A stretch of DNA of 64,000 nt from an uncultured Solirubrobacterales bacterium (GTDB lineage: Bacteria; Actinomycetota; Thermoleophilia; Solirubrobacterales; JBBDJG01), in contig OY970293.1 of the NCBI GenBank assembly GCA_963716195.1, forward strand, positions 408,462 to 472,461, written 5' to 3'. A program made the position numbers and the translations under genes. Within the stretch, counting starts at the first letter, position 1. Each line of letters begins with the position of its first letter. A model generated the notes under the pieces. The model was not told the origin of the DNA and ran no database searches. It worked only from the letters and a program-made list of their open reading frames with translations. Below, piece by piece: positions 5,312-46,084 of the stretch.

Positions 5312-5984
5312 TCAAGTGGGACACTCCCAAGCCGCGCGCGCGGATCGGGCAGCGTGGCGCGCCCGACGCAGCGGTTCGGGAGTGCGGGCGCGGGCCGTGA
5401 CGGCGAATACGACCTCGAGCGCGGTCGCGAGATCCGTGCGCCATGCGGGGGTCACCGCCAGGGGGCGGCGGCCTGGAAGTGTGCGAACCCAAGCCCCAAC
5501 GACATCACCTTCGAGCATGAGCGGTGCACTCGCGCCGCGCCGGTCGTCAGGCCAACCACCTTCGGCACACAGTGGACGATGTGTGACGCCAACGCTCGCT
5601 ACGCCCAGCGCCGCACCGAGATGCAGTGCAAGCCCCGCACGACGGGGATGATCGCGGCCAGTCGCGTTTACCAGCAACACGTCGGGGAGGCGCGGCAGCG
5701 CGCGCACGGCCGCTTCGAGCACCGGTCCCTCGCGCAGGGCAAGCAGCGCGATCCGGTATGGGGGCCGCGGCGCGCCCAATGCGCACGGCGATCACTTCGC
5801 CTAGCGCCGCTGCGGCCCAGGCCCGATCGCCGGCAGCGCCGGGTCCCGACAACCCACGCGGGAAGCAGACGAAGCAGCCGCCGACCGCGTCGCCACTGTG
5901 GAGGCGCCAGGGTGTCGGGTCGTCCACGGCGAGCTGCTGCTGCTCTTCTAATAGAGCTCTCGCCGAAGTTGGCCAGCGTCCCAT
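5312..5984 (-). pseudogene. nfi: Endonuclease V with one +1 frameshift
   Basis: N-terminal frame (from ATG 5984): MGRWPTSARALLEEQQQLA..AVGGCFVCFPRG..GEVIAVRIGRAAAP. Second frame: YRIALLALREGPVLEAAVRALPRLPDVLLVNATGRDHPRRAGLALHLGAALGVASVGVTH. Junction is at a C5 run near 5775. Confidence 0.75.
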
Positions 5985-12791: not shown

Positions 12792-13051
12792 GGTGGAGTG
12801 CCGGAGGACTGCTTGAGGGTGGAGTGGTTCGTCTGGACACATGTTGCAGGCGTGCAACGGGGAACCCGATGCATACTCGCGGCCGGATCTGACCAGGCGA
12901 ACTCGTCGCAAGGCGGGGGCGCAAAGCCAGAGGTCTTGCTGTAGCGCAAGACGGCTCGGCCGCCGGTGGATCCTTGATCCATCGTAGGCAGGGGAGTCGC
13001 GGACCTCGTTTCGCTGGGCCCCTTGACACGGATGACCAAGGAGGTCAGTCA

Positions 13052-13555
13052 ATGTTCAGCAGCAAGTTCACCAAGAAGCGGGTGCTCACCGCGCTCGGCG
13101 TTCTCGGCGTCCTGGCGATCGCGTCCGTCGCGTTCGCATTCTGGACGACCTCGGGCTCCGGCTCGGGCTCCGCAACCGCCGGCACGGACGCCGGCGTGAG
13201 TGTTTCCGGCGATCCCTCCGACGGGATCTACCCGGGCTCGAGCGTCGCGGTGACGACCACCGTCACGAACGACAGCTCGACGCAGAGCCAGTACGTCACC
13301 AACCTGCACGTGGCGATCTCGATCGACGAGGCGCACGCAACGGCGGGCTGTGAGGCGAGCTGGTTCACCTACAAGGCCGACAGCGAGGCTTCGGGCGCGG
13401 ACTCGAACCCGCACACGGTCGCTCTGGACACCGAGCTCGCGGCCAGCGACAGCACCACGGTCGACGGACACGTGTTCATGGCCAACCCGGACACGAACCA
13501 GGACGCCTGCAAGGGCGCGACCATCGACCTCGCGTACACGGTCGACAACTCGTAG
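13052..13555 (+). CDS. Small secreted TasA/camelysin-like protein (putative major fibre subunit), gene A
   Basis: Strong SD aaggagg. Leader MFSSKFTKKRVLTALGVLGVLAIASVAFAFWTTSGSGSGSATAG. C-terminus ..NPDTNQDACKGATIDLAYTVDNS. Confidence 0.6.
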   Translation: MFSSKFTKKRVLTALGVLGVLAIASVAFAFWTTSGSGSGSATAGTDAGVSVSGDPSDGIYPGSSVAVTTTVTNDSSTQSQYVTNLHVAISIDEAHATAGCEASWFTYKADSEASGADSNPHTVALDTELAASDSTTVDGHVFMANPDTNQDACKGATIDLAYTVDNS

Positions 13556-13569
13556 CAACCCCGAGTACC

Positions 13570-13601
13570 GGAAGGGTGGCGGCTCCGGCTGCCGCCCTTC
13601 C
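13570..13601 (+). terminator. Hairpin (13-bp stem incl. 2 G-U, loop ctccgg) followed by a C/T-rich tract, after gene A
   Basis: ggaagggtggcgg-ctccgg-ctgccgcccttcc then tctccttcc. There is no clean U-run, so it is an attenuator or weak terminator at best. Confidence 0.45.
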
Positions 13602-13639
13602 TCTCCTTCCTAACCAACGACAACCCACTCACATTCGAG

Positions 13640-14764
13640 ATGAAGAGACTCCGGAAAACGACAGCGAGGAGTGCCAAGCGCAAGCTTGCGGTGGCCCTGC
13701 TCGGTGTTGCCGCCCTGTCGGGCGCCGGCGCCGTCTTCGCAGCCGGCGGAAAGCCTGATTTCTCCATCGCCGCGTCGCCCGGGTCCCAGACGGTCAGCCA
13801 GGGTGCAGCGACGACGTACACCGTGACCGTGACGAGACAGAACGGATTTTCTGGATCGGTCAGCCTCGCGATCAGCAATCTTCCAACCGGGGCGAGCGCG
13901 AGCTGGAAGCTCAGTGACGGAACGAGCTCGAGCGTCGTGCCGCCGAGCCTGAACAGCGCCACGCTGAAGATCCAGACGAGCTCGACCACCCCGAACGCGA
14001 CGTCACAGCCGGTCATCACCGCCACAAGCGGAAAGCTGTCTCACTCGATAGCGATCACGCTGGTCGTACAGCCCACCGCGCAGCCGAACTTCGCTGTCAC
14101 GGGGTCTCCGGCAAGCCAGCCGGTACCGCAGGGCGCCGACGCCTCCTACACGGTGCGGGTGAATCGCACGGGTGGTTTCAGCGAGTCGGTCGACCTGAGC
14201 GTCAGCGGACTGCCGAAGGGAGCGACCGCCTCCTGGATTCCGGGCAGCACCGTTCCCGGGACCAGCTCGGAGACGGCGCTGCAGATTCAGACCGCGAGCA
14301 ACACGCAGACGGGCACCTATGCGCTTGCGATCACCGGGACCGGCACGATCGGCGGAAGCGCCGCGTCCAGATCCTCGGCGGTGGTGTTGGACGTGCAGCG
14401 GAGCCAGAGCTTCCAGATCGAGGGCAACCTCGGCGCTCAGCTGGCCCCTGGACGGAGAGCCCCGCTCAACCTGTCGCTGACCAATCCGTACAACTTCGCT
14501 TTGACGATCACGGGACTTGCGGTCGCGGTCGAGGAGGAGACGAGCAAGACCGGCTGTAGCGGTACTCAGAACTTCGAGATCACGCAGGTGCCATCCGCGC
14601 GCTACCCGATCTCGCTGCCGGCCGGGCAGACGCGGACGCTTGCCGACCTCGGTGTGGCCGATGCCGACATGCCCCAGGTGGAGATGGTCAATCGACCCTG
14701 GAACCAGGACGCCTGCAAGGGCGCGACCATCAGCCTCGACTACAGCGGGAGCGCGGGCAAGTGA
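13640..14764 (+). CDS. Secreted multi-domain protein, gene B: two beta-sandwich domains plus a C-terminal domain paralogous to gene A
   Basis: Sec leader ..LLGVAALSGAGAVFAAGG. Duplicated ..TYTVTVTRQNGFSGSVSLAISNLPTGASASW.. / ..SYTVRVNRTGGFSESVDLSVSGLPKGATASW... C-terminus ..NRPWNQDACKGATISLDYSGSAGK. Confidence 0.6.
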   Translation: MKRLRKTTARSAKRKLAVALLGVAALSGAGAVFAAGGKPDFSIAASPGSQTVSQGAATTYTVTVTRQNGFSGSVSLAISNLPTGASASWKLSDGTSSSVVPPSLNSATLKIQTSSTTPNATSQPVITATSGKLSHSIAITLVVQPTAQPNFAVTGSPASQPVPQGADASYTVRVNRTGGFSESVDLSVSGLPKGATASWIPGSTVPGTSSETALQIQTASNTQTGTYALAITGTGTIGGSAASRSSAVVLDVQRSQSFQIEGNLGAQLAPGRRAPLNLSLTNPYNFALTITGLAVAVEEETSKTGCSGTQNFEITQVPSARYPISLPAGQTRTLADLGVADADMPQVEMVNRPWNQDACKGATISLDYSGSAGK

Positions 14765-16476
14765 CCGCGCGTCGCCTCGTCCAGATCGCTTTGCCCGTCG
14801 TAGTGATGCTGATGGTCGCCGCAAGTGCCTCGGCGCACTGGACTACCCAGGGCGCCGGGAACGCGTCCGCGAGCGTCGGCAGCTTGAACGCGCCGACCAA
14901 CGTCTCCGTACCGGCCAGCACGTCAGGCACCGTGCACGTCACCTGGAACAGCGCGACGCTCGACGACGGGCTGACGCCCGCGAGCGGCTATTACGTGACC
15001 CGGGTGAAGACAAGTGACGCGTCGACCGCGAACGCGTGCGGTACGAGCCCGTCGTCCCTGACGTCGTCCACGGCGACCTCCTGCGATGACACGACCGTTC
15101 CGGATGGGACCTATCACTACACGGTCACGGCCGTCTTTCGCTCCTGGACAGCAACGAGCGCGCCGAGCGGCAGCGTCGCAGTCGCTGCTCAGGCAACGCT
15201 CGATCATTTCGCCGTAACCACACCGGTGAGCGCCACGGCCGGCGCACCGTTCAGCGTGACGGTCACGGCCAAGGATGCGTCCAACAACACGTTCACCGGC
15301 TACACGGGAACGGTCCACTTCGAGACCGCCGATTCAGCGTCTCCCGTCCTGCCGTCGAACTACACGTTCGCGGCAGGCGACGGCGGCTCGCACACCTTTA
15401 CCAACGGCGTCACGCTCAAGACAGCCGGGAACCAGACCATTACCGTCAACGATACGGCTGAGACGTCGAAGACCGGCCAGGCCACGATCGACGTCAGCGC
15501 AGCCACGGCTCACCACTTCACGGTGACGGCCCCTGCCACGGCGACGGCGGGCACCGCGTTCAGCACGGTGACGCTGACCGCCAAGGATGCCTACAACAAC
15601 ACGGCCACCGGCTACACGGGCAACCGCACGATCAGCTGGAGCGGCGCCTCCACGAGCCCAGGCGGCAACGCCCCGAGCTATCCGACCGGCACCGTGGCGT
15701 TCGCGAACGGCGTCAGTACGACGACGCTGACGGCGACATTGTTCGCCGCAGGCTCCAACAGCCTCACCGCGACCGCGAGCTCGCCGAGCGTGACCGGCAC
15801 GGCCGCGATCAGCGTCAGCGCAGCCGCGGCCGACCACTTCACGGTGACGGCCCCGGCCACGGCGACGGCGGGCACCGCGTTTAGCACGGTGACGCTGACC
15901 GCCAAGGATGCCTACAACAACACGGCCACCGGCTACACGGGCAACCGCACGATCAGCTGGAGCGGCGCCTCCACGAGCCCAGGCGGCAACGCCCCGAGCT
16001 ATCCGACCGGGACCGTGGCGTTCGCGAACGGCGTCAGTACGACGACGCTGACGGCGACATTGTTCGCCGCAGGCTCCAACAGCCTCACCGCGACCGCGAG
16101 CTCGCCGAGCGTGACCGGCACGGCCGCGATCAGCGTCAACTCGGCCGGCGTCGTGCTCTCTTACAACCGCACCTGCCCGGTGGCGGTTCCGAAGAATTCC
16201 TCGACAGCATTCACGATCGTCGTCCCGAACGACGCCTACGGCAACTCGTTCCGGAACGCTTCGGGGATCGGGATCGGTCTCACCTTGAGCAACGGAACCA
16301 ATTTCGGCTTCGGCGCGGTCGGGACGACCACGACCACGGTCACCATCACGACCGGCCCGGCAACCAACACCTTCACCGTGGCTGAGAGCGGGGCTAACAA
16401 GACGACGAGCCTCACCGCGACCGCTCCGGCCGGCTTCACGGCGCCCGGGTCCTGCACGATCAGCGCCGGGAACTAG
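14761..16476 (+). CDS. Secreted FN3 plus Ig-like-repeat protein, gene C, with a gene-A-like leader
   Basis: GTGA overlap with gene B. Leader ..VVVMLMVAASASAHWTTQGAGNASASVG. FN3-like ..GTVHVTWNSATLDDG..GYYVTRV..YHYTVTAVFRSW. Repeated HFxVTxPxxATAGxxFxVTxTAKDxxNN..YTG.. Ig-like domains. Confidence 0.65.
   Translation: MTARRLVQIALPVVVMLMVAASASAHWTTQGAGNASASVGSLNAPTNVSVPASTSGTVHVTWNSATLDDGLTPASGYYVTRVKTSDASTANACGTSPSSLTSSTATSCDDTTVPDGTYHYTVTAVFRSWTATSAPSGSVAVAAQATLDHFAVTTPVSATAGAPFSVTVTAKDASNNTFTGYTGTVHFETADSASPVLPSNYTFAAGDGGSHTFTNGVTLKTAGNQTITVNDTAETSKTGQATIDVSAATAHHFTVTAPATATAGTAFSTVTLTAKDAYNNTATGYTGNRTISWSGASTSPGGNAPSYPTGTVAFANGVSTTTLTATLFAAGSNSLTATASSPSVTGTAAISVSAAAADHFTVTAPATATAGTAFSTVTLTAKDAYNNTATGYTGNRTISWSGASTSPGGNAPSYPTGTVAFANGVSTTTLTATLFAAGSNSLTATASSPSVTGTAAISVNSAGVVLSYNRTCPVAVPKNSSTAFTIVVPNDAYGNSFRNASGIGIGLTLSNGTNFGFGAVGTTTTTVTITTGPATNTFTVAESGANKTTSLTATAPAGFTAPGSCTISAGN
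15492..16134 (+). repeat. Near-perfect 321-bp (107-aa) tandem duplication inside gene C
   Basis: 15492-15812 vs 15813-16133: only a handful of substitutions (e.g. SAATAHHF vs SAAAADHF). Both copies encode the same Ig-like domain. Confidence 0.9.
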
Positions 16477-16499
16477 CCAAGCCTCCGCCGCCGCGCCCT

Positions 16500-16650
16500 G
16501 CCGACGCAGGTCCGCCCGAAAATCCGAGGTTTGGCTTTCGCAGTTCGGGGTGGTCTCAAGAACCACCCGAAATCCGCTGGGTCTCCGCCCACCCAGGCGG
16601 CACGTCATCTCGTAATGAAGGGGTCCCCGGTTCGAATCCGGGCGTCGGCT
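16500..16650 (+). ncRNA. 151-nt tRNA-like element (perfect 7-bp acceptor plus canonical T-arm, tRNA-Thr(CGU)-like 3' half, ~75 nt of extra helices)
   Basis: gccgacg (16500-06) is complementary to cgtcggc (16643-49). T-arm cccgg-TTCGAAT-ccggg (16626-42). Loop ctCGTaa at 16609-15. Internal perfect hairpin gggtggt-CUCAAGA-accaccc (16548-68). Confidence 0.4.
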
Positions 16651-16698
16651 TCCCTTCATCTGCGTTCCTGAAACCGAGCGGAATCGGTTTCTAAGGTC

Positions 16699-16728: not shown

Positions 16729-16804
16729 TGGTCAAGTAGGGATTCGTACGCAGGGGATTCGCAGGCAGGGACGTCGAAGGACGGACCCGACAACGGAGGC
16801 ACGA

Positions 16805-19800
16805 ATGCTCTCAGGGGATCTGCGCGCGACGGCGCGCTCACGTAGTTCTGTCGCACCAACCGCCGGGCACGGCGCAGCCACAGGCCACCGGAGGAACCGA
16901 GCGGGGCGCGGCGGGTCAGCCCGCCGCAGGCCATTGGCTCTGGTCGCTCTCCTCGCCCTTCTCGTCGCTTCGGCGGCGCTCATGGTCGGCACCGCCTCTG
17001 CCTCCGCCGCGGTCATCCTCAACCCGGACTCGGGCGGCCAGAACGACATCGATCCCAGCTCGCTCAACAACCAGAGCGATCTGAGCGCGTACGGGATCAG
17101 CGGCACCGGCGCCGCCAACACGACGACGCAATACGGCTGGAAGTGGGACGAGCCCTTCCTGTCGGGCAACAACAGCCTCGACGTGTGCGTCTACCTGAGC
17201 TCGACCACGAGCGGCAGCTCTGATCCGAATGCCGCCGAGTATGCCGTCTGCTTCGACGTCACCACCGACTCCCAAGGGAATCCCACTACTACGGACATCA
17301 CCTACTGGTACTGCCCGACCTACAGCACCGCGGACGCCTCCAGCGGTGGTCAGAAATGCTTCGGCAACAGCAGCGAGCTCCCCGCGGGGCCGGACAGCGC
17401 GGTCATCAGCGCAACCGCTGCCCTCACGACGAACGTTGCACCCCAGTTCGCAAGCGACCCCGACAGGGACACCCAGGTCGTCCTGGACGTGACGCCGAAC
17501 CTGAATCTGACCCTGGTCAACATCTGCAGCAAGAAGAGCGCTTCTCCGTCATCGGATTCCTCCGACTGCGGTCTCGAGCGCGCACCAGCGTTCCTGAAGC
17601 TCGTCAAGACAGTTCAGGATGGAGACGCGGTTCCCGCCGACTGGACACTGTCCTGGGACGGCCCTGGCACGAACGACGGATCGGTGGCCGGTGACAACAC
17701 GCAGTTCGTCCCGGTGCCCGATGGCACGTACAACCTTTCGGAGTCCGGTCCGAGCACCTACGAGCAGGTCTCGCTCGTTTGCTCGCCGACGGCGAACACG
17801 GGTAACTCGGTCACTCTGGGTCAGGGCGTTCAGGAGACCTGCACGTTCACCAACAAGCTCAAATTCATCCCCGACCCGCACCTGGCGATCACCAAGACGG
17901 CGACCGAGGCCAACTACGACGCGGTCGGCGACGTCATCCACTACACGATCGTGGCCACCAACGACGGCAACACGACGCTCACCGGCGTGACCGTCACCGA
18001 CCCCAAGGTCTCAGGCCTCGACTGCACGCCGGCCAACGGCTCGGACCTGGCGCCCGGCGCCTCGATCAGCTGCACCGCCAGCCACACGGTCACCCAGGCC
18101 GACATCGACGCCGGCAACTACGCCAACCAGGCCTGCGTTAACGACGGCGACGGCGGCGCGGCCGCGGTCTGCGCGGACGAGGACGTCCCCGCGGTCCAAA
18201 GCCCGCACCTGGCGATCACCAAGACGGCGACCGAGGCCAACTACGACGCGGTCGGCGACGTCATCCACTACACGATCGTGGCCACCAACGACGGCAACAC
18301 GACGCTCACCGGCGTGACCGTCACCGACCCCAAGGTCTCAGGCCTCGACTGCACGCCGGCCAACGGCTCGGACCTGGCGCCCGGCGCCTCGATCAGCTGC
18401 ACCGCCAGCCACACGGTCACCCAGGCCGACATCGACGCCGGCAACTACGCCAACCAGGCCTGCGTTAACGACGGCGACGGCGGCGCGGCCGCGGTCTGCG
18501 CGGACGAGGACGTCCCCGCGGTCCAAAGCCCGCACCTGGCGATCACCAAGACGGCGACCGAGGCCAACTACGACGCGGTCGGCGACGTCATCCACTACAC
18601 GATCGTGGCCACCAACGACGGCAACACGACGCTCACCGGCGTGACCGTCACCGACCCCAAGGTCTCAGGCCTCGACTGCACGCCGGCCAACGGCTCGGAC
18701 CTGGCGCCCGGCGCCTCGATCAGCTGCACCGCCAGCCACACGGTCACCCAGGCCGACATCGACGCCGGCAACTACGCCAACCAGGCCTGCGTTAACGACG
18801 GCGACGGCGGCGCGGCCGCGGTCTGCGCGGACGAGGACGTCCCCGCGGTCCAAAGCCCGCACCTGGCGATCACCAAGACGGCGACCGAGGCCAACTACGA
18901 CGCGGTCGGCGACGTCATCCACTACACGATCGTGGCCACCAACGACGGCAACACGACGCTCACCGGCGTGACCGTCACCGACCCCAAGGTCTCAGGCCTC
19001 GACTGCACGCCGGCCAACGGCTCGGACCTGGCGCCCGGCGCCTCGATCAGCTGCACCGCCAGCCACACGGTCACCCAGGCCGACATCGACGCCGGCAACT
19101 ACGCCAACCAGGCCTGCGTTAACGACGGCGACGGCGGCGCGGCCGCGGTCTGCGCGGACGAGGACGTCCCCGCGGTCCAAAGCCCGCACCTGGCGATCAC
19201 CAAGACGGCGACCGAGGCCAACTACGACGCGGTCGGCGACGTCATCCACTACACGATCGTGGCCACCAACGACGGCAACACGACGCTCACCGGCGTGACC
19301 GTCACCGACCCCAAGGTCTCAGGCCTCGACTGCACGCCGGCCAACGGCTCGGACCTGGCGCCCGGCGCCTCGATCAGCTGCACCGCCAGCCACACGGTCA
19401 CCCAGGCCGACATCGACGCCGGCAACTACGCCAACCAGGCCTGCGTTAACGACGGCGACGGCGGCGCGGCCGCGGTCTGCGCGGACGAGGACGTCCCCGC
19501 GGTCCAAAGCCCGCACCTGGCGATCACCAAGACGGCGACCGAGGCCAACTACGACGCGGTCGGCGACGTCATCCACTACACGATCGTGGCCACCAACGAC
19601 GGCAACACGACGCTCACCGGCGTGACCGTCACCGACCCCAAGGTCTCAGGCCTCGACTGCACGCCGGCCAACGGCTCGGACCTGGCGCCCGGCGCCTCGA
19701 TCAGCTGCACCGCCAGCCACACGGTCACCCAGGCCGACATCGACGCCGGCAACTACGCCAACCAGGCCTGCGTTAACGACGGCGACGGCGGCGCGGCCGC

Positions 19801-21967
19801 GGTCTGCGCGGACGAGGACGTCCCCGCGGTCCAAAGCCCGCACCTGGCGATCACCAAGACGGCGACCGAGGCCAACTACGACGCGGTCGGCGACGTCATC
19901 CACTACACGATCGTGGCCACCAACGACGGCAACACGACGCTCACCGGCGTGACCGTCACCGACCCCAAGGTCTCAGGCCTCGACTGCACGCCGGCCAACG
20001 GCTCGGACCTGGCGCCCGGCGCCTCGATCAGCTGCACCGCCAGCCACACGGTCACCCAGGCCGACATCGACGCCGGCAACTACGCCAACCAGGCCTGCGT
20101 TAACGACGGCGACGGCGGCGCGGCCGCGGTCTGCGCGGACGAGGACGTCCCCGCGGTCCAAAGCCCGCACCTGGCGATCACCAAGACGGCGACCGAGGCC
20201 AACTACGACGCGGTCGGCGACGTCATCCACTACACGATCGTGGCCACCAACGACGGCAACACGACGCTCACCGGCGTGACCGTCACCGACCCCAAGGTCT
20301 CAGGCCTCGACTGCACGCCGGCCAACGGCTCGGACCTGGCGCCCGGCGCCTCGATCAGCTGCACCGCCAGCCACACGGTCACCCAGGCCGACATCGACGC
20401 CGGCAACTACGCCAACCAGGCCTGCGTTAACGACGGCGACGGCGGCGCGGCCGCGGTCTGCGCGGACGAGGACGTCCCCGCGGTCCAAAGCCCGCACCTG
20501 GCGATCACCAAGACGGCGACCGAGGCCAACTACGACGCGGTCGGCGACGTCATCCACTACACGATCGTGGCCACCAACGACGGCAACACGACGCTCACCG
20601 GCGTGACCGTCACCGACCCCAAGGTCTCAGGCCTCGACTGCACGCCGGCCAACGGCTCGGACCTGGCGCCCGGCGCCTCGATCAGCTGCACCGCCAGCCA
20701 CACGGTCACCCAGGCCGACATCGACGCCGGCAACTACGCCAACCAGGCCTGCGTTAACGACGGCGACGGCGGCGCGGCCGCGGTCTGCGCGGACGAGGAC
20801 GTCCCCGCGGTCCAAAGCCCGCACCTGGCGATCACCAAGACGGCGACCGAGGCCAACTACGACGCGGTCGGCGACGTCATCCACTACACGATCGTGGCCA
20901 CCAACGACGGCAACACGACGCTCACCGGCGTGACCGTCACCGACCCCAAGGTCTCAGGCCTCGACTGCACGCCGGCCAACGGCTCGGACCTGGCGCCCGG
21001 CGCCTCGATCAGCTGCACCGCCAGCCACACGGTCACCCAGGCCGACATCGACGCCGGCAACTACGCCAACCAGGCCTGCGTTAACGACGGCGACGGCGGC
21101 GCGGCCGCGGTCTGCGCGGACGAGGACGTCCCCGCGGTCCAAAGCCCGAGGATAGGGTTGACCAAGACGCCCAACCCGACGACCTACAGCGCCGCCGGCC
21201 AGATCATCAACTACACGATCGTTGCGGCCAACACCGGCAACGTGACGCTGCACGACGTGACGGTCACCGACTCGAAGCTGGGCCCGCTGACCTGCACGCC
21301 CACCCAGCCGTCGACGCTCCTCCCCGGCGCTTCGATGAGCTGCACCGGCAGCTACACGATCCAGCCGGGTGACGTCAAGGCCGACAACACCGGCACGGTG
21401 GTGAACACGGCGAACACTGCCGGCAAGGGCCCGCAGGACCAGCCGGTCTCGAACACCGCGACCGCCACCGTCCGCCAGGTGCCGGCGACCGGCAAGATCA
21501 CGCCCACGGCCACCACCTGTCAGCAGTTCGCCAACGGCACCAACGGCGAGCTGACGGACGAGCTGTACACCGTCAAGGGCCAGAAAATCAACAGCATCGC
21601 CCCCGGCGTGTTCTTCTACTACAGCAAGATCACGGCGCCGGCGAGCGCCTTCACGATCGAGGTGAAGCAGTCGAACACCCTCAACTGGAGGCTGATCGGA
21701 ACGCAACAGCTGATCCTGTGGGATGCGAACTGCGTCAAGACCTTCGTGTCCGGGTCTTACAACTCGATCACAGGGACGGTGACGTTCAACGCGTCAGGCT
21801 TGACGTCTGGTACGACCTACTACATCAGCATCAAGTACGACCCGGGCTCGCTCTCGGGGCAGACGGTCGGCAACACGAAGCCGACGAGCGTGTACACGTT
21901 CAAGACGTACATCAACGGCGGCGTGGTTCTGACCAGCCAGGACAGCGTGAACGTGAAGGCGAAGTAA
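16805..21967 (+). CDS. 1720-aa secreted repeat adhesin: leader, N-terminal domain, SpaA/prealbumin-like domain, 10+1 DUF11-type repeats, ~270-aa C-terminal domain; no LPXTG
   Basis: Leader ..RRRPLALVALLALLVASAALMVGTASASA. ..LKLVKTVQDGDAVPADWTLSW..TCTFTNK. Repeat unit LAITKTATEANYDAVGDVIHYTIVATNDGNTTLTGVTVTDPKVSGLDCTP..SCTASHTVTQADIDAGNYANQACV... Ends ..VLTSQDSVNVKAK. Confidence 0.9.
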   Translation: MLSGDLRATARSRSSVAPTAGHGAATGHRRNRAGRGGSARRRPLALVALLALLVASAALMVGTASASAAVILNPDSGGQNDIDPSSLNNQSDLSAYGISGTGAANTTTQYGWKWDEPFLSGNNSLDVCVYLSSTTSGSSDPNAAEYAVCFDVTTDSQGNPTTTDITYWYCPTYSTADASSGGQKCFGNSSELPAGPDSAVISATAALTTNVAPQFASDPDRDTQVVLDVTPNLNLTLVNICSKKSASPSSDSSDCGLERAPAFLKLVKTVQDGDAVPADWTLSWDGPGTNDGSVAGDNTQFVPVPDGTYNLSESGPSTYEQVSLVCSPTANTGNSVTLGQGVQETCTFTNKLKFIPDPHLAITKTATEANYDAVGDVIHYTIVATNDGNTTLTGVTVTDPKVSGLDCTPANGSDLAPGASISCTASHTVTQADIDAGNYANQACVNDGDGGAAAVCADEDVPAVQSPHLAITKTATEANYDAVGDVIHYTIVATNDGNTTLTGVTVTDPKVSGLDCTPANGSDLAPGASISCTASHTVTQADIDAGNYANQACVNDGDGGAAAVCADEDVPAVQSPHLAITKTATEANYDAVGDVIHYTIVATNDGNTTLTGVTVTDPKVSGLDCTPANGSDLAPGASISCTASHTVTQADIDAGNYANQACVNDGDGGAAAVCADEDVPAVQSPHLAITKTATEANYDAVGDVIHYTIVATNDGNTTLTGVTVTDPKVSGLDCTPANGSDLAPGASISCTASHTVTQADIDAGNYANQACVNDGDGGAAAVCADEDVPAVQSPHLAITKTATEANYDAVGDVIHYTIVATNDGNTTLTGVTVTDPKVSGLDCTPANGSDLAPGASISCTASHTVTQADIDAGNYANQACVNDGDGGAAAVCADEDVPAVQSPHLAITKTATEANYDAVGDVIHYTIVATNDGNTTLTGVTVTDPKVSGLDCTPANGSDLAPGASISCTASHTVTQADIDAGNYANQACVNDGDGGAAAVCADEDVPAVQSPHLAITKTATEANYDAVGDVIHYTIVATNDGNTTLTGVTVTDPKVSGLDCTPANGSDLAPGASISCTASHTVTQADIDAGNYANQACVNDGDGGAAAVCADEDVPAVQSPHLAITKTATEANYDAVGDVIHYTIVATNDGNTTLTGVTVTDPKVSGLDCTPANGSDLAPGASISCTASHTVTQADIDAGNYANQACVNDGDGGAAAVCADEDVPAVQSPHLAITKTATEANYDAVGDVIHYTIVATNDGNTTLTGVTVTDPKVSGLDCTPANGSDLAPGASISCTASHTVTQADIDAGNYANQACVNDGDGGAAAVCADEDVPAVQSPHLAITKTATEANYDAVGDVIHYTIVATNDGNTTLTGVTVTDPKVSGLDCTPANGSDLAPGASISCTASHTVTQADIDAGNYANQACVNDGDGGAAAVCADEDVPAVQSPRIGLTKTPNPTTYSAAGQIINYTIVAANTGNVTLHDVTVTDSKLGPLTCTPTQPSTLLPGASMSCTGSYTIQPGDVKADNTGTVVNTANTAGKGPQDQPVSNTATATVRQVPATGKITPTATTCQQFANGTNGELTDELYTVKGQKINSIAPGVFFYYSKITAPASAFTIEVKQSNTLNWRLIGTQQLILWDANCVKTFVSGSYNSITGTVTFNASGLTSGTTYYISIKYDPGSLSGQTVGNTKPTSVYTFKTYINGGVVLTSQDSVNVKAK
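17876..21148 (+). repeat. Ten tandem, apparently nucleotide-identical 327-bp (109-aa) repeats, followed by one diverged 11th unit (to ~21480)
   Basis: Period 327 (e.g. ccgcacctggcgatc at 17876, 18203, ...). Identical protein units, and nine identical antisense ORFs spaced 327 bp apart in the ORF track. Confidence 0.95.
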
Positions 21968-32179: not shown

Positions 32180-34357
32180 TCAACCAACGCTCTGTTCTCG
32201 CCCTTCGACTCGGACTTTCGGCAGCCACCGCAGCCATGCAGGGAGGTACCAGTTGCGGTCCCCAAGTAGTTGCATCGTCACGGGCAGAAGGACGAGACGG
32301 ACGATCGTCGCATCGATCAGGAGCGCAACGGCGACACCGAATCCCATCTGCTGGAACATGACCAGATCGCCGCGGGCGAAGCCGCTGAAGACGGCGATGA
32401 TGATCAAAGCCGCACCGGTGATCACCCGGGCGGTCGTGCTCACGCCATAGACGATTGCGTCGGAGTTGTCATGGGTTTGCCGGAAGCGCTCTTGGATCCG
32501 GCTCAGCAAGAAGACCTCGTAATCCATCGACAGTCCAAACAGGACCGCAAAGAGAAACAGCGGCACCCACGATTCGACCGCGTCGACCTGCTGGAATCCA
32601 AACAGTTCGTTCCCGACACCCTTTTGGAAGACGAGCACGACGAGGCCGTAGGCCGCACCGACGGACAGGAGGTTGAGGACGACCGCCTTGATCGCCACGA
32701 CGATCGAGCGAAAGGCGATGGTCAGCAAGACGAAGCTCACGGTCAGCACGAACGCGATTACGACGGGCAGCCAGTCCTCCATGGTGTCGGACTCGTCGAC
32801 GATCCGGGCGCTCTCGCCGGCGACCAATACCTCCGTATCCGTGACTCCGCCGAAAGCCCGGGGGATGTAATCGCTGCGAAGCTGGCGCACGGCGTCCATC
32901 GCCTCTTTGCCGAGCGCGTCACCGCCAACCGGCACCGTCAGCACAGCGAGATCCCCACCGGGGCTCTCATCCAAGTCCGCGCGGCCGAGGATGCTGCTTT
33001 CGGCAAGCAGGTTCTCGAGGCGCTCGATCCCGCTACGCACCGCCGCAGACTCGGTCGGCCCGTCCACCACGATCTCCACGGGGTCGGCGGTCTCGCTGGG
33101 GAACTCCTGATTGAGGGCGACGAATCCCTGCTTCGACTGAAGCCGATCGGGGAGGGTGCTGACTCCGGCCTCGCCGGTCTGGAGGTCGAGGACGGGGACG
33201 GTCGCGGCCAAGAGCAATGCGACGACCGCGATCAGCGCGACCCATGGGCGCCGCATCACACCTCGCACCGCTCCCGACCAGAAGCGACTTCCTTCGCGTG
33301 TGGCCGCCCTCCCGAAGAACGGCATGCGAAGCCCATTCACCCTGTCCCCCAGCAGAGTCAGCAGCGCGGGCAGGAGCGTCAAGGCGACAAAGACGGACGC
33401 GACTGCGGCGAAGATTGCGCCGGCGGCGAGGCTCCGCATCAAGGTGTGCGGCACCAGCAACAGCCCAAGCATCGCGACGATGAACGCGCTGCCGCTGAAG
33501 AGCACGGCGCGACCGGCGCGCGCGCTCGCCGTCATGGCTGCGTCCCCTTCGTGCAGTCCGTGGAGTCGCTCCTCGCGGTACCGAAAGATGATCAACAGCG
33601 AGTAGTCGATCCCGAGTGCGAGCCCCATCCCCGTCAGCATGTTTGGCGTGAAGTCCGAAAGCAGGAACACCTGACCGGTGACCGCCGTCATGGCAAGCGC
33701 GATCAAGATCGCGACGATCGCGAGCAGGAGGGGCAGGAGGCCTGCAACGACTGCACCGAACACGAGCAGCAGAACGAGGATCGCCGCCGGAAGGCCGAAA
33801 TACAGCTCGCCCGTCTTGAGGTCGTCTAGCGCAAGCTCCGAGAAGTCGGCGTCGCTCGTCCACTCGCCCGTTATGTAAGCGTCGAAGCGATCGTTGTTAC
33901 TGGCTTCCACGGCGTGGACGAGGCGTTCGGTCGTGTCCTCCTCGTCCCAGCCTGGCGCCACGAGCAGGGCCGTCGAGTCGCGATCTGTGGATACGAGGCG
34001 ATCGTCGCGGCCTTCGTAATAGGTGACCACCTCGGAAGCACCGGCCCGGCGCAGATCCTGGGTAAGCGCGACGACGTGACTCTCAAAGGCTTGATCGTCC
34101 ACCATCGCGTGTCGCGAGCGGACGATGATGACTTCGCTCGTATCCGTGTTTACATCCGACCGGTCCTGCGGGAAGCGCTCGGACATGAGGGTTTCGGCGC
34201 GTCGTGACTCCGTCTCGTTGGTGAGGTCGTCGTCCGAGGTGAGCGCGTCGCCGAGGAAGACGCCGACGAGCACGGCGGCGATCACGACGATCGATGCCCA
34301 GATCGCGACCGCACGCCACGGCCGTCGAGCGCTCCAGGATGTAAGTCGCTCAGCCAT
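32180..34357 (-). CDS. MMPL-family (RND superfamily) membrane transporter
   Basis: 725 aa with two 5-6 TM bundles. ..GIDYSLLIIFRYREE.. and ..GLSMDYEVFLLSRIQERF... Confidence 0.85.
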   Translation of the reverse strand: MAERLTSWSARRPWRAVAIWASIVVIAAVLVGVFLGDALTSDDDLTNETESRRAETLMSERFPQDRSDVNTDTSEVIIVRSRHAMVDDQAFESHVVALTQDLRRAGASEVVTYYEGRDDRLVSTDRDSTALLVAPGWDEEDTTERLVHAVEASNNDRFDAYITGEWTSDADFSELALDDLKTGELYFGLPAAILVLLLVFGAVVAGLLPLLLAIVAILIALAMTAVTGQVFLLSDFTPNMLTGMGLALGIDYSLLIIFRYREERLHGLHEGDAAMTASARAGRAVLFSGSAFIVAMLGLLLVPHTLMRSLAAGAIFAAVASVFVALTLLPALLTLLGDRVNGLRMPFFGRAATREGSRFWSGAVRGVMRRPWVALIAVVALLLAATVPVLDLQTGEAGVSTLPDRLQSKQGFVALNQEFPSETADPVEIVVDGPTESAAVRSGIERLENLLAESSILGRADLDESPGGDLAVLTVPVGGDALGKEAMDAVRQLRSDYIPRAFGGVTDTEVLVAGESARIVDESDTMEDWLPVVIAFVLTVSFVLLTIAFRSIVVAIKAVVLNLLSVGAAYGLVVLVFQKGVGNELFGFQQVDAVESWVPLFLFAVLFGLSMDYEVFLLSRIQERFRQTHDNSDAIVYGVSTTARVITGAALIIIAVFSGFARGDLVMFQQMGFGVAVALLIDATIVRLVLLPVTMQLLGDRNWYLPAWLRWLPKVRVEGREQSVG

Positions 34358-40433: not shown

Positions 40434-42579
40434 CTAGCCTCCTCCGCTGCTGGTCAGATGGAATATGCCGTGGGCGTCGAGCCGCGCCTCGCGCCCTGGC
40501 GGGATCGCGAACGTCGTCGCCGAGTGCTCGACGATCGCCGGCCCTGTGATCTGGTGGCCGGCCTCGACGTCCTCGAGCCGGACGATCGAGGTCTCGGCCT
40601 CGCCGTCGCGCCAGCGCACTGTCCGTGTCGAGGTCACCGCCGGCTCGCCGGTAGCTTCGTCGAGCTCGGGCAGCGCCGGCTTCTCGACCTCGACCGAGCC
40701 GTGGACGATCGCCTGCGTGATCAGGTAGCCAAGCTCGGGTGACCGGGCCGAGCGGGCGTAGACCTTCGAGTACGCGTCCTCGAAGGCGTCGATGAGCGCA
40801 TCCACATGCTCGCTCTCCTCCATTTCCGGATGCGGAGAGACGATCTCGATGTCGTTGAGCTGGCCGTAGTACTGCATTCGCACCGCGTGCGAGAAGGTGA
40901 TCCGGTCGCGCTCGATCCCCGACTTCGCGAACTCCGCCGCGACGCGCTCCTCGAGTCCCTGCCAAGCGCCGGTGACCATCACCCCGATCCCCGCCTTCTG
41001 CATCTCGTCGACGGGCGGCAGGATCGGCATGTCGATCGTCTGGTCGTAGCGGTACTCGAAGTCGGCGCACGCGCATCCGTAGGCGGAGAAGCCGGCCGCC
41101 CAGGCGGGGACGAGGACGTCGCGGTAGGCGACTCCCTCCGTATAGCCGGCGACGTGGAGCGGCCCGCCGCCGCCGTAACAAAGCAGCGCGTAGTCGGGCG
41201 GGCGAGTAACCCTTGCCGAGGATGCGCCCGACAGCCTCGTTGCGCAGGGTCTGCTCGAACAACTCGATCACGCCGGCAGCCGCATCGGCCGCCTCGAGCC
41301 CGAGCGGTTGGGCGACCTGGCGCTCGACCTCGGCGAGCGCGCGCTCGGGGTCGAGCTGGATGTCGCCGCCGAGGAAGTAGTCGGGATTGACGCGCCCGAG
41401 GACGACGTTGAGGTCGGTGATCGAGACGGTCTCGAGGCCGCCCTCGGGCCAGCACACACCGATCCGCGCGCCGGCAGAGTCGGGCCCGAGCTCGGGCCGG
41501 TTCGAGTTCGGGTTGACGCGCACGAACGAGCCGGTCCCGGCGCCGATCGAGTCGATGCGGACGAGCGGCATGTTGAGCATGAAGCGGGCGATGTCCGGGG
41601 TCGGAGTGATGTCGAACCGCCCGTCGGTGATCAGCGCGATGTCGAAGGAGGTGCCGCCGATGTCGGTGCACAGGACGTTCGGGAGCTCCAACCGCTCGGC
41701 CAGCGCCTGGCCGCCGACGACGCCGCCGATCGGACCGGAGACGAGAGTCGTCGCCAGCTCCTTCGCCTCCATCGAGATCGTGCCCCCGTGCGAGGCCATC
41801 ACCCGCAGCTCGAAGGCGGCGTTAGCCTTCTTCGTCTCCTCGCGGACCTTCTGCATCGCTGCGCGGGAGGGCTCGGCGGCGTAGGCCTCGATCAGCGTCG
41901 AGTTGAGCCGCGGGAGATCGCGGCGCAGTGGGTACAGCTCCGAAGCAAGGTAAACGGGGACCGCGCCGTCCACGCCGCGCTCGGCCTTGACCTCGGCGAC
42001 GATCTCCGCCGCCCGCCGCTCGTGCGCGGCGTTGCGGTAACCGAACAAGAGGCAGATGCAGATTCCCTCGACGCCGGCGTCGAGGAGCTCGGCCGCGGCT
42101 TCGTGGACGTCCTGCTCGCGCAGCGGCAGGACCTCGGCGCCCATGACGTCGATTCGCCCACGGACTCCCTTCATCTGCTCGCGCGGGACGATCGGCTCGT
42201 TGTGGTAGTGGGTCGCGATGTGGAGACGGTCGGAATACGAGAAGCCGAGGTAGGTCTGAATCCCGCGCTCGATCCGCAGGTAGTCCTCGTTGCCGGCCGT
42301 GACGATCGCGCCGATGTTGCGCCCGGTCCGCGAGAGCAAGCGGTTGAGCATCGCCGTGCCCGAGTAGATCCCGGAGGCGATCCCCGGGAACGCCTCCTCG
42401 GGGCTCGAGTGCCACTGCTCGAGCGCGTCGTGTGCCGACTCCATGAAGCCGATCGACTCGTCCTCGGGCGTCGTCTGGGCCTTGCCGACGACGAAGCTGC
42501 CGGCGCTGTCGACGATGAACGTGTCGGTCATCGTCCCGCCGGCGTCGATGGCAAGCACGCGCGGGTCTCGGTCAGCCAT
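40434..42579 (-). pseudogene. acxA: Acetone carboxylase beta / hydantoinase A-like subunit, one +1 frameshift
   Basis: MADRDPRVLAIDAGGTMTDTF..TDIGGTSFDIALI..RILGKGYSP | DYALLCYGGGGPLHVAGY..FSAYGCACADFEYRYDQTIDMPILPP..GPAIVEHSATTFAIPPG. Junction at gggcgggc 41197-41204. The 985-aa ORF in the track is an out-of-frame run-on. Confidence 0.75.
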
Positions 42580-42796
42580 TTCTCCCTCTGCGGCGAGCCT
42601 AGAGGAATCGGTTCGCGATCGTCGAGCAACATGGAGGAAGCCGCGTACTGCGATCGGCTGTCATCCGATCGGATTAACGATGTTCGCCCAATCGAATGAC
42701 TGGCAGCGTTGCCGGCCGTTGCCATTTTTTGTCTTCCCCCTGCGGGCAGCTACGATCAGGGCCAATTGGGGGGATACTGGTGAGCTGGAAGCTCGG

Positions 42797-43306
42797 ATGA
42801 CCTCCGTCGAGACAGTCACGATCCTGGTAACCGACCTCGTGGGATCCACGGGGCTCGAGTCACGGATCGGGCCGGGCGCGGCCGACGAGCTGCGCGATGA
42901 GCACTTCACGCTGCTTCGGGGTGCGTTCGAGGCAGCGCGCGGGCGCGAGGTGAAGAACACCGGCGACGGCCTGATCGCGGCCTTCGAGAGCGCCTCCTCC
43001 GCAGTCGACTGCGCGGTCTCGATCCAGCAGCGCATGGAGCGGCGAAACCGCTCCGCGGGCGAGCAGCTGCTGATCAAGATCGGGATCAGCCTCGGCGATG
43101 CGACCGCAGCCGACGGCGACTACTTCGGCATGCCGGTGATCGAGGCGGCGCGGCTTTGCGATCGCGCCACCGGAGGTCAGATCCTGGTCAAGGAAACGGT
43201 CGCCCACCTCGCGGCCGGACGCGTCGGCGACGCCCTGAAGGCGGTCGGCGCGCTGGAGCTGAAGGGACTGCCGGAGCCGCTGGCGACGGTGGAGGTGAGC
43301 TGGGAG
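42797..43306 (+). repeat. 510-bp block ~99% identical to 46528-47037 (cyclase domains of the two paralogs)
   Basis: 170 aa identical. Only about four nucleotide differences noticed (e.g. cacgctg/cacactg, gatcgc/gaccgc). Identity drops abruptly after ..ATVEVSWEP. Confidence 0.9.
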
Positions 43307-46084
43307 CCGCTGGGTGCGGAAGAAGGCGCGCTCCCCGTCCCGGCTCTCCTTCAGGAGGTGCCGCCGGTCGGCTTCGTCGGCCGCGCTCGCGAGCACGACC
43401 GCCTCCTTTCCCTCGTCGACGAGGCAAGAGGGGGACGCCTTCGCCTTGCTCTCGTTCCCGGCGAGCCCGGGATCGGCAAGACCCGGCTGTCCACCCACGC
43501 TGCCCTCGAAGCCCGTGGTCAGGGGGCGACGCTCCTCTACGGACGCGCCGACCAGGACCTCAGCGTCCCCTACGGACCTTGGGTTGGGGCGCTCTCCCAC
43601 TTCGTCGAGCACGCGCCCGAGCCGGTTCTGCGCGCGCACATAGAGCGCCACGGCGGCGAGCTCGCGCGCGTGGTTCCCGCTCTCCGCGACCGCCTCACCG
43701 ACATGCCGGCCCCGCGCGAGACCGATCCGGACACCGAGCGCTACATGCTGTGGGGCGCCGTCGCGGGCCTGCTGCGCGAAGCATCGAGCGACCAACCGAT
43801 CGTGCTCGTCCTCGACGACCTCCACTGGGCCGACAAGCCGACCCTCTCGCTCATGGAGCACATGGTCAGCCACGGCGGCGATATTCACGCGCTCCTGATC
43901 GCCACGTACCGCGAGTCGGAGCTCGACCGCGGGCACCCGCTCACATCAGTGCTCGCCCATCTTCACCGGGAGCAGGGAGTCGAGCGCTTGGCGCTCAAGG
44001 GACTCGAGGAGAACGACATCGTCCACATCATGGAGCGGGCCGCCGGCCACGAGATGGACGAGGTCGGCTTGGCGCTTGCGCGGGAGCTCTTCAGGGAGGC
44101 GGACGGCAACCCCTTCTATACCGGCGAGATCCTTCGCCATCTCCTGGAGTCCGGCGCAATCCATCAGCAGGAAGACGGGCGCTGGACGGTGCGAGGCTCC
44201 CTCTCCGAGCTCACGCTGCCGCAGAGCGTGCGCGAGGTGGTGGACCACCGCGTCGAGCGGCTCGGCGAGGAGGCACAGAAGGCGCTTCAGGTGGCGGCAG
44301 TGATCGGTCGAGAATTCGATACGGAGCTCCTTCTTGGCCTGACAGATTGCTCCGATGAAGAGGAACTGCTCGACATCCTCGACGAGGCGGTCGAGGCCTC
44401 GGTCCTGACCGAGTCGGCGAAGGTCCCTGGACGCTTTTCATTCGCGCACGCCCTCATAAACCACACCCTCTATGCCGGGCTCGGCACGACGCGTCGAGCT
44501 CGCCTTCACCATTCGGTCGCCGAGGCCCTCGAAGAGCTGTGCGGTGGCGACCCGGGGGCGCGCGTCTCCGAGCTCGCTTATCACTGGGCCAGCGCCACCA
44601 CCGCCGTGGACGTACTGAAGGCGACGGCCTATGCTCGCATGGCCGGCGAGCGCGCCCTCTCGGAGCTCGCCCCCGACGAAGCTTTGCGGTGGTTCACGCA
44701 GGCGCTCGAGTTGCTCGACCAGTCGGGCGCAGAGCGGAACAGTGACCGCTGCGAGCTGCTGATCGGGCTCGGCGAGGCGCAGCGCCAGATCGGCGAGGCC
44801 GACTTCCGCGAAACGCTGCTCGCGGCCGCCGTCCTTGCGCGCGAGCTGGGCGATGATGGCCGGCTGGCGCGGGCGGCGCTGGCGAACACGCGCGGCTTCA
44901 CGTCTGAGATCGGTCGCGTCGACGAAGAGCGCGTCGAGATGCTGGAGGCGGCCGCTGCGCGGTTAGGGGAAAATGCCTCCAGCCGCGCCGACGTCCTCGC
45001 CCTGCTTGCGATGGAGCTCAGCTTCAGCGAGGACGCGGACCGCCGCGTCGCGCTCGCCAGGGAGGCATTGAAGCTCGCGCGAGCGCGGGCTGATGACGAA
45101 GCGCTGACGCGGGTGATCGACCGCTACCTGTTCGCCACTTGGGTTCCGGAGACGCTCTCGGAACGCCTCGAGCTTTCTGAGGAGCTGCTCGAGCGCGCCG
45201 ATCACACGGAGGATCCGTATCGCAGGCTGCTCGCCTACAACCGCCGCATCTACTACGTGCTCGAGAACGGGGACGCCGAGGAGGCCGATGAATGCGTGCG
45301 GCGGATGCGCGACATCGCAGATAGGGTCCCTCAGCCATTCCTGCGCTGGGTAGCGCTCTATCAGGACGGGATGATGGCCCAGCTGCACGGACGGCTCGAG
45401 GAAGCCGAAGCGCTGATCGAGGAAGCTGTAGCTGTCGGCACGGAAGGGGACCAGCCCGACGCTGTGCTCCTTTATGCCGGCCAGCAGTTCTGGCTGCGCA
45501 ACGACCAGGGACGCGTCCCCGAGATCATCGACGTTGTCGCGCAGTCGATTGAGGACTACCCCGGCATGCCCGCCTGGCGCGCCGGCTATGCATACCTGCT
45601 GTGTGAGGCCGGGCGCGGCGAAGAGGTGTACGCGATGCTTGCCGGCGAGGACTTTGACGCGCTCCCACGCGACTTCTTGCGCCTTTCGAGCCTCGCGTAC
45701 TGGACAGAGGCCTGCGCAAGCATCGCGGCGGTGGAGTTCGCAGACGACCTGTACGCTCGGCTCGAGCCCTTCCGCGACCAGGTCGCCGGCAACGGCGTCA
45801 ACATGGTCGGCTCCGTGAGTTATTTCCTTGGCCGGTTGTCGGCGGTAGCCGGCGAGCACGATCGCGCAAGCGGCGAGTTCGAGGCGGCCGCGGCCGTGCA
45901 CCGCCGCATGGACGCTCCCTTGATGTTGGCCCGCAACGAGGAGGCCTGGGCGCGGTCACTCCTAGAGAGGGGCCGGGCGGGAGATCACGAGCGGGCTTCC
46001 ACGCTCCTCCAATCCGCGCTTTCGCGCGCCCGTGCGCACGGCGCGGAGGGGATAGCTCGCCGCGTCGAGGCGGCCGTCGCATGA
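42797..46084 (+). CDS. Class III adenylate/guanylate cyclase domain, STAND-type AAA ATPase and TPR-like protein (paralog 1)
   Basis: ..ILVTDLVGSTGL..VKNTGDGLIAAF..GDYFGMPVIEAARL.. then ..LVPGEPGIGKTRLS..IVLVLDDLHWADKPTL..ADGNPFYTGEI.. then helical repeats. ATG 42797; the upstream part of ORF 42443 was discarded. Confidence 0.8.
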   Translation: MTSVETVTILVTDLVGSTGLESRIGPGAADELRDEHFTLLRGAFEAARGREVKNTGDGLIAAFESASSAVDCAVSIQQRMERRNRSAGEQLLIKIGISLGDATAADGDYFGMPVIEAARLCDRATGGQILVKETVAHLAAGRVGDALKAVGALELKGLPEPLATVEVSWEPLGAEEGALPVPALLQEVPPVGFVGRAREHDRLLSLVDEARGGRLRLALVPGEPGIGKTRLSTHAALEARGQGATLLYGRADQDLSVPYGPWVGALSHFVEHAPEPVLRAHIERHGGELARVVPALRDRLTDMPAPRETDPDTERYMLWGAVAGLLREASSDQPIVLVLDDLHWADKPTLSLMEHMVSHGGDIHALLIATYRESELDRGHPLTSVLAHLHREQGVERLALKGLEENDIVHIMERAAGHEMDEVGLALARELFREADGNPFYTGEILRHLLESGAIHQQEDGRWTVRGSLSELTLPQSVREVVDHRVERLGEEAQKALQVAAVIGREFDTELLLGLTDCSDEEELLDILDEAVEASVLTESAKVPGRFSFAHALINHTLYAGLGTTRRARLHHSVAEALEELCGGDPGARVSELAYHWASATTAVDVLKATAYARMAGERALSELAPDEALRWFTQALELLDQSGAERNSDRCELLIGLGEAQRQIGEADFRETLLAAAVLARELGDDGRLARAALANTRGFTSEIGRVDEERVEMLEAAAARLGENASSRADVLALLAMELSFSEDADRRVALAREALKLARARADDEALTRVIDRYLFATWVPETLSERLELSEELLERADHTEDPYRRLLAYNRRIYYVLENGDAEEADECVRRMRDIADRVPQPFLRWVALYQDGMMAQLHGRLEEAEALIEEAVAVGTEGDQPDAVLLYAGQQFWLRNDQGRVPEIIDVVAQSIEDYPGMPAWRAGYAYLLCEAGRGEEVYAMLAGEDFDALPRDFLRLSSLAYWTEACASIAAVEFADDLYARLEPFRDQVAGNGVNMVGSVSYFLGRLSAVAGEHDRASGEFEAAAAVHRRMDAPLMLARNEEAWARSLLERGRAGDHERASTLLQSALSRARAHGAEGIARRVEAAVA

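Follow-up and report, generated by a model that had tools for sequence, protein, structure and literature searches.

A probable displaced 3' fragment of a tRNA-Thr(CGU) gene, rather than a 151-nt tRNA-like RNA, in a Solirubrobacterales contig

Introduction

Does a 151-nt stretch in which a T-arm and a 7-bp acceptor pairing enclose additional helices encode a tRNA-like RNA, or does it mark a site where a mobile element once met a tRNA gene? This question is raised by positions 16500-16650 (+ strand) of the window, i.e., the whole 64-kb stretch of DNA from an uncultured Solirubrobacterales bacterium that was analysed. The sequence-only reading of this locus had put forward a 151-nt tRNA-like element, either an interrupted tRNA gene or a tRNA-derived RNA, and had offered an att relic with a chance 7-mer complement as a third reading.

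Displaced tRNA gene fragments are a known and common kind of feature. The attP site of an element with a tyrosine integrase includes a duplicate of the 3' portion of a tRNA gene; with a crossover in the anticodon loop, this duplicate completes an intact tRNA at one island end, and the original 3' fragment is displaced to the other (PMC4383910). In the Islander survey, a 3' tDNA fragment was present in 3760 of 3919 islands, with 2083 belonging to the anticodon-centred class (PMC4383910).

Results and Discussion

The 3' block matches part of a tRNA-Thr(CGU) gene

The features of the locus and its immediate surroundings are as follows.

Positions 14761-16476 (+): 571-aa gene, the last of a 3-gene cassette, with its stop codon 23 nt before 16500.
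Positions 16500-16514 (+): GCCGACGcAGgTCcG, comprising a 7-mer complementary to the 3' acceptor strand and, as a 15-mer, matching a tRNA 5' end at 12 of 15 positions.
Positions 16515-16608 (+): intergenic filler holding hairpins and a direct repeat, without homologs in the fetched loci and with a fold z-score of -0.3.
Positions 16609-16650 (+): very probably a displaced 3' tRNA-Thr(CGU) gene fragment, identical to nt 32-73 at 42/42 positions and thus an anticodon-loop-class att core.
Positions 16652-16659 (+): CCCTTCAT, which pairs with ATGAAGGG at 16615-16622 and encloses the T-arm (P 0.8-1.0 in flanked folds).
Positions 16670-16691 (+): 8-bp hairpin GAAACCGA-gcggaa-TCGGTTTC, 20 nt past the tRNA fragment, from a hairpin scan; it has no T-run and was not called by the terminator scan.

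All 42 nucleotides of the block at 16609-16650 are identical (BLAST E 2e-19) to nt 32-73 of the tRNA-Thr(CGU) of Solirubrobacterales and Thermoleophilia relatives, a sequence that is assumed for the window's own genome, which lies outside the set of fetched loci. The block comprises the anticodon loop, the 3' strand of the anticodon stem, the variable loop, the T-arm (cccgg-TTCGAAT-ccggg, 16626-16642), the 3' acceptor strand (cgtcggc, 16643-16649, complementary to gccgacg at 16500-16506) and the discriminator, which is T; CCA is not encoded. Identity begins at C32, where the anticodon loop opens, and extends to the discriminator, thereby reaching the 3' end of the gene. Known crossover sublocations are the anticodon loop, the T-loop and the T/acceptor junction; the block begins at the first of these, and its boundary at C32 is common to at least 15 other orphan fragments. 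The previously suggested resemblance of the 3' ~45 nt to half of a tRNA-Thr(CGU) thus holds for these 42 nt, and the T-arm, the 7-mer complement, the discriminator T, the missing CCA and three inner helices were all found where the sequence-only reading had placed them.

Among the listed features of 16500-16650, only the 3' part exceeds chance. Its perfect identity implies a recent event or some constraint. The block is like the class A (anticodon-centred) 3' tDNA fragments of Islander (PMC4383910), which likewise run from the anticodon loop to the discriminator and are identical to a real tRNA of the lineage.

tRNA-Thr(CGU) is an integration hotspot in related genomes

A search for the T-arm and acceptor strand, with each species represented by one genome, returned at least 118 loci, overwhelmingly from metagenome-assembled genomes (MAGs) of Solirubrobacterales and Thermoleophilia. 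Among the 125 matches listed, about 80 are intact tRNA-Thr(CGU) genes with the sequence GCCGACGTAGCTCAGCTGGTAGAGCACTTCACTCGTAATGAAGGGGTCCCCGGTTCGAATCCGGGCGTCGGCT, and about 35 are orphan 3' fragments with unrelated upstream sequence. The exact 42-nt block of the window recurs in at least 15 other orphans. A sample of the intact genes was called tRNA-Thr by both ARAGORN and Rfam (71.8 bits); the tRNA model (RF00005) that gives 71.8 bits on intact genes skipped the orphans in L016 and L072.

Contigs carrying both an intact tRNA-Thr(CGU) and a fragment have a uniform configuration: in 13 of 13 among the matches listed, the fragment lies downstream on the same strand, 1.4-48 kb from the tRNA (48 kb on an IMG/VR provirus contig), and several of these contigs are tandem arrays. 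Genes for PF00589 tyrosine integrases directly adjoin the intact tRNA at both loci tested (L072 and L016), and integrase homologs are present in at least 14 loci. At the provirus locus (L122), the ORF beside the tRNA has a sub-threshold match to the PF22022 integrase domain (24.5 bits vs. a cut-off of 27). An orphan fragment downstream of an intact tRNA, accompanied by an integrase, is what the integration of an island into a tRNA gene classically leaves, and these data show tRNA-Thr(CGU) to be a much-used integration hotspot throughout Solirubrobacterales. Therefore, the same 3' half does occur at bona fide tRNA-Thr genes that flank integrated elements, an observation that the sequence-only reading had itself named as one that would reduce its element to an att relic.

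The survey also turned up several local arrangements. The hotspot is illustrated by L072, L062, L068, L101 and nine further contigs, among which there are tandem arrays of two displaced fragments behind one intact gene, and the shortest islands measure 1.4-2.5 kb (L096, L016). In L101, ARAGORN called a 76-nt 'tRNA-Thr(cgt)' at 2875-2950 that consists of an orphan fragment plus fortuitous upstream sequence, and which exemplifies the false tRNA calls generated by att scars. In L100, an orphan at 284 (-) is inverted relative to an intact tRNA-Thr at 5571-5644 (+), 5.3 kb apart, an arrangement that could reflect an inversion between att cores. Identical tRNA-Thr loci of the Solirubrobacterales type were found in MAGs labelled Bifidobacterium breve, Pyrinomonadaceae and Gemmatimonadaceae (L014/L094, L029, L049, L073), and the upstream flank of L014 is identical to those of L023, L061, L070 and L071; these loci are likely the result of binning contamination.

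A dead scar is favoured over a live island boundary

Combined, the identity of the block and its recurrence at island boundaries in relatives make it very probable that 16609-16650 is a displaced 3' tRNA-Thr(CGU) gene fragment, i.e., an att core, preceded by unrelated sequence that holds a chance 7-mer. A past tyrosine-integrase integration into tRNA-Thr(CGU) would have put the 42-nt fragment at the far end of an island, and the later loss of that island would have left the fragment behind as a dead scar. The sequence at 16500-16608 would then be unrelated intergenic DNA, with its 7-nt complement and hairpins being coincidences of GC-rich sequence, and no discrete 151-nt tRNA-like RNA would be made. 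The 42/42 identity, the orphans downstream of intact tRNAs and the chance-rate occurrence of the 7-mer (see below) all back the att-relic reading that had originally been listed third.

Several observations count against the att scar: the window holds no intact tRNA-Thr(CGU) and no integrase, the upstream genes (an ABC transporter and a riboswitch-associated cassette) are not island-like, 16500-16514 matches a tRNA 5' end at a level of about 1% chance, and the 42/42 identity requires either a recent event or some constraint. In the relatives with the same 42-nt fragment, Islander-type islands have an intact tRNA upstream on the same strand with an integrase beside it (two loci tested); unlike such a demonstrable island boundary, the window fragment is an orphan whose cognate intact tRNA and integrase are both missing from the window. 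No integrase or phage-like gene was detected in the window by Pfam on about 40 ORFs, by PHROGs on the upstream genes or by tblastn with three integrases from relatives (best E 0.1), and there is no tyrosine integrase between a tRNA and the fragment. Nor does the 64-kb window contain another att core by which an island could be delimited.

The geometry of such events places the island on the 5' side of the 3' fragment, so that the island either exceeds 16.6 kb, with its tRNA beyond the start of the window, or has been lost. Because neither an integrase nor an intact tRNA is found in the 64-kb window, the block is most likely the dead scar of a past integration rather than the distal boundary of an island exceeding 16.6 kb, and we infer that integration occurred in this genome's own lineage and was followed by loss of the island. 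An island that is still in place would be a sub-case of the same att-fragment explanation, differing only in that the island is intact: 16609-16650 would be the functional right end (attR) of an island of more than 16.6 kb, and both its integrase and its restored tRNA-Thr(CGU) would precede the start of the window. This arrangement would fit the fully kept core (42/42), the islands of up to 48 kb in relatives and the published size range of 2 to 200 kb (PMC4383910), but the 16.6 kb upstream of the fragment contain housekeeping-like genes (T2SS-F-like genes, an ABC sugar transporter) and the riboswitch cassette at host-like GC, and the directly upstream cassette is chromosomal and without a tRNA fragment in four relatives. 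An intact island is therefore considered unlikely.

Downstream of the fragment, a regulator may bind to a tandem 15-nt direct repeat (GGGATTCGTACGCAG / GGGATTCGCAGGCAG) at 16739-16768, which precedes the adhesin start codon by about 40 nt. The adhesin gene itself (16805-21967) encodes a 1720-aa DUF7507/DUF11 repeat protein and contains, at 17875-21148, ten tandem 327-bp copies with 100% identity and no indels, which points to a very recent expansion, concerted evolution or an assembly artefact. Proteins with adenylate/guanylate-cyclase domains are encoded at 42443-46084 and 53689-54516, one of them fused to an AAA_16 ATPase; with these two cyclase-domain proteins and the c-di-GMP riboswitch, the region is rich in nucleotide signalling.

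The upstream 109 nt show little beyond background

The 7-mer GCCGACG, on which the acceptor pairing depends, occurs in 59 copies on both strands of the 67% GC window, and the chance of at least one copy is 6.7% within 150 nt and 8.8% within 200 nt. Of the approximately 27 other orphan fragments whose upstream sequence is long enough, 2 are likewise preceded by the 7-mer (by 142 and 79 nt), which equals the chance rate. In L100, the 7-mer lies 79 nt upstream of the 3' end of the orphan fragment.

The longer resemblance of this region to a tRNA 5' end calls for closer weighing. The 12/15 match of 16500-16514 (13/16 when extended to 16515) has a chance of about 1% within 150-200 nt and is mildly unusual. 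When any part of the tRNA was allowed to match 16500-16608 in a local alignment, the score was equalled or beaten by 13% of random window segments. The resemblance of 16500-16514 to a tRNA 5' end is most likely fortuitous, and it is not conserved in the four relatives considered below; that these nucleotides are the remnant of a tRNA 5' end is a minority reading. The stretch at 16521-16537, 13/17 identical to the tRNA 3' end, was also considered as the decayed remains of an older tandem fragment; the local-alignment test placed it below chance level, and this reading was rejected.

The filler at 16515-16608 includes a cccgaa/ttcggg helix (16515-20 / 16544-49), a perfect 7-bp hairpin (16548-16568) and a ccgctgggt/acccaggcgg helix with one bulged G (16574-16600), as well as a short direct repeat, CC(G/A)CCCGAAA, at 16512-21 / 16563-72. 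Perfect hairpins of at least 7 bp occur at 0.15 per 100 nt in the window. Against dinucleotide shuffles, the whole 151 nt have a minimum free energy (MFE) z-score of -1.1 and the inner 102 nt one of -0.3; both the hairpins and the fold are at background, which does not bear out the proposal that the extra helices form a structure. Homologs of the inner 109 nt (16500-16608) were absent from the 118 fetched loci by blastn, exact scans of the metagenome and viral collections gave no match to the hairpin 21-mer, and a gapped pattern of the 5' piece, 81-111 nt and the 3' half had no match in the metagenome collection. The sequence at 16515-16608 is possibly the decayed distal end of the former island.

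A comparative test was provided by the 3-gene cassette directly upstream, which is present in four other assemblies (L119, L120, L123, L124) with 72-83% nucleotide identity. In all four, homology to the cassette ends at window positions 16462-16491, no tRNA fragment lies next to it, and the downstream genes differ in each. The region of 16500-16514 is not alignable and not conserved in these loci, 16515-16608 has no homolog there, and the element as a whole is not conserved.

The cassette is preceded directly by a c-di-GMP-I riboswitch (52.7 bits), the two together spanning 12886-16476. Its products (193, 374 and 571 aa), which are probably secreted, have only a weak fn3 match and no PHROG match, leaving the label 'fibre module' given to these upstream genes by the sequence-only reading unsupported. 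In the four relatives, the homologous stretch starts past the riboswitch, at window 13011, and Rfam detects no such element in them; in L123, a GGDEF gene adjoins the cassette.

An interrupted native gene is unlikely

The 5' match bears most directly on the idea that the window itself was once a native tRNA-Thr(CGU) locus into which an island integrated, after which a deletion took out the sequence between the D-arm and a point close to the island's far end. The locus would now consist of a tRNA 5' stub of 13-16 nt (16500-16515), some 94 nt from the end of the island and the displaced 3' fragment; a small insertion replacing nt 16-31 is an equivalent version. Such a history would account for ordinary chromosomal genes on both sides and the lack of an integrase, it agrees with the break in homology to relatives just before 16500, and the 12/15 (13/16) match lies in the correct orientation upstream of the fragment at about 1% chance. 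However, the 5' piece would have gathered 3 substitutions in 15 nt vs. 0 in 42 nt for the 3' piece, which is improbable under joint decay ((15/57)^3, about 0.02), and the local alignment is not significant once any tRNA part may match. Such a 5' piece is present in 0 of approximately 27 other orphans, the architecture is absent from the metagenome collection, and no relative has a tRNA-Thr beside homologs of the flanking genes. Unless a second copy exists, the loss would also have left the genome without the tRNA that reads ACG, a codon used often at 67% GC. Combined, these points make a gutted native gene unlikely.

In the search for related loci, the MMPL-family gene at 32180-34357 showed 35-38% identity to genes near tRNA-Thr in four relatives, which was judged to reflect a paralogous family and not synteny. 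The adhesin N-terminus, used as a probe for an orthologous locus, gave two weak matches only.

Folding and RNA-family searches do not support a tRNA-like RNA

When cut at exactly 16500-16650, the 151 nt have an MFE fold that contains the acceptor stem and T-arm. Once 20-100 nt of flank are added, the probability of the acceptor pairs falls to P=0 because the 8-bp pairing of 16615-22 with 16652-59 competes with them.

ARAGORN found 0 tRNA or tmRNA genes in the 64-kb window. At gathering thresholds, Rfam likewise reported no tRNA or tmRNA in the window, with the c-di-GMP-I riboswitch at 12886-12967 as its only match, and at E<=10 the 501-nt and 161-nt stretches around the element gave noise only, with RF00005 absent. 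The sole trace at the element was mascRNA at 13.5 bits (gathering score 42.5), driven by the T-arm alone, and no intron family matched 16500-16650. Therefore, the ARAGORN and Rfam checks that had been proposed for the element returned no tRNA, tmRNA or other family, and the headline claim of a 151-nt tRNA-like element has no backing from ARAGORN, Rfam, folding, relatives or the metagenome collection.

Assignment to established RNA classes was considered and rejected on the same data. tRNA genes (RF00005, including those with long variable arms or group I introns) have in common with 16500-16650 a T-arm, a 3' acceptor strand and, fortuitously here, its 5' complement; unlike them, the 151-nt stretch has neither a D-arm nor an anticodon stem, and a cloverleaf was recognised by neither ARAGORN (0 genes) nor RF00005 at E<=10. 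tmRNA (one- or two-piece), which is defined by a tRNA-like domain together with a tag ORF and pseudoknots, shares the tRNA-like acceptor and T-arm around extra helices, but 16500-16650 falls far short of its length and lacks a tag reading frame, and neither ARAGORN nor Rfam gave a tmRNA match. A conserved structured ncRNA is likewise not indicated, with no homologs, z-scores of -1.1 and -0.3, and a region that is unalignable in four relatives. Tying these results together, there is no family, conservation or covariation to support an RNA, since neither the hairpin nor the architecture has matches and the relatives are without the element.

For these reasons, it is highly improbable that the 151 nt act as a functional RNA, an acceptor/T-arm minihelix with extra helices that would be transcribed on its own or carried in the 3' UTR of the upstream operon and would be a target of RNase P, RNase Z or the CCA-adding enzyme. 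The perfect 7-bp acceptor pairing and canonical T-arm of the exactly cut 151 nt favour it, as does the location 23 nt past a same-strand stop codon, from which transcription as a 3' UTR is probable; set against this are the lack of covariance-model or ARAGORN support, the z-score of -1.1, the acceptor pairing at P=0 with flanks, the absence of both homologs and conservation, and the fact that a copy of a real tRNA gene fully explains the T-arm and acceptor strand. An acceptor/T-arm stack is possible in principle here, as in tRNA-like minihelix RNAs (the mascRNA/MALAT1 3' module, viral TLS, the tRNA-like domain of bacterial YrlA), but unlike those RNAs the stretch is not conserved, its pairing is unfavoured in context and its mascRNA score is 13.5 bits only. 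That the att scar was co-opted, with the upstream 7-mer, as a minihelix in the 3' UTR of the c-di-GMP-riboswitch-controlled operon, where recognition by RNase P, RNase Z or the CCA-adding enzyme would define or stabilise the mRNA 3' end, is a similarly long shot; if true, a mobile-element scar would have given rise to a bacterial counterpart of the MALAT1/mascRNA module.

Conclusions

This study traced a supposed 151-nt tRNA-like element to a 42-nt block that is very probably a displaced 3' tRNA-Thr(CGU) gene fragment. Its importance beyond annotation is little. Recognising the att scar averts a false call of a 'novel tRNA-like RNA', and at the whole-genome level the 42-nt fragment is a marker for delimiting an island. 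For the biology of this lineage, the att scar would mark tRNA-Thr(CGU) as the past or present attachment site of a tyrosine-integrase element.
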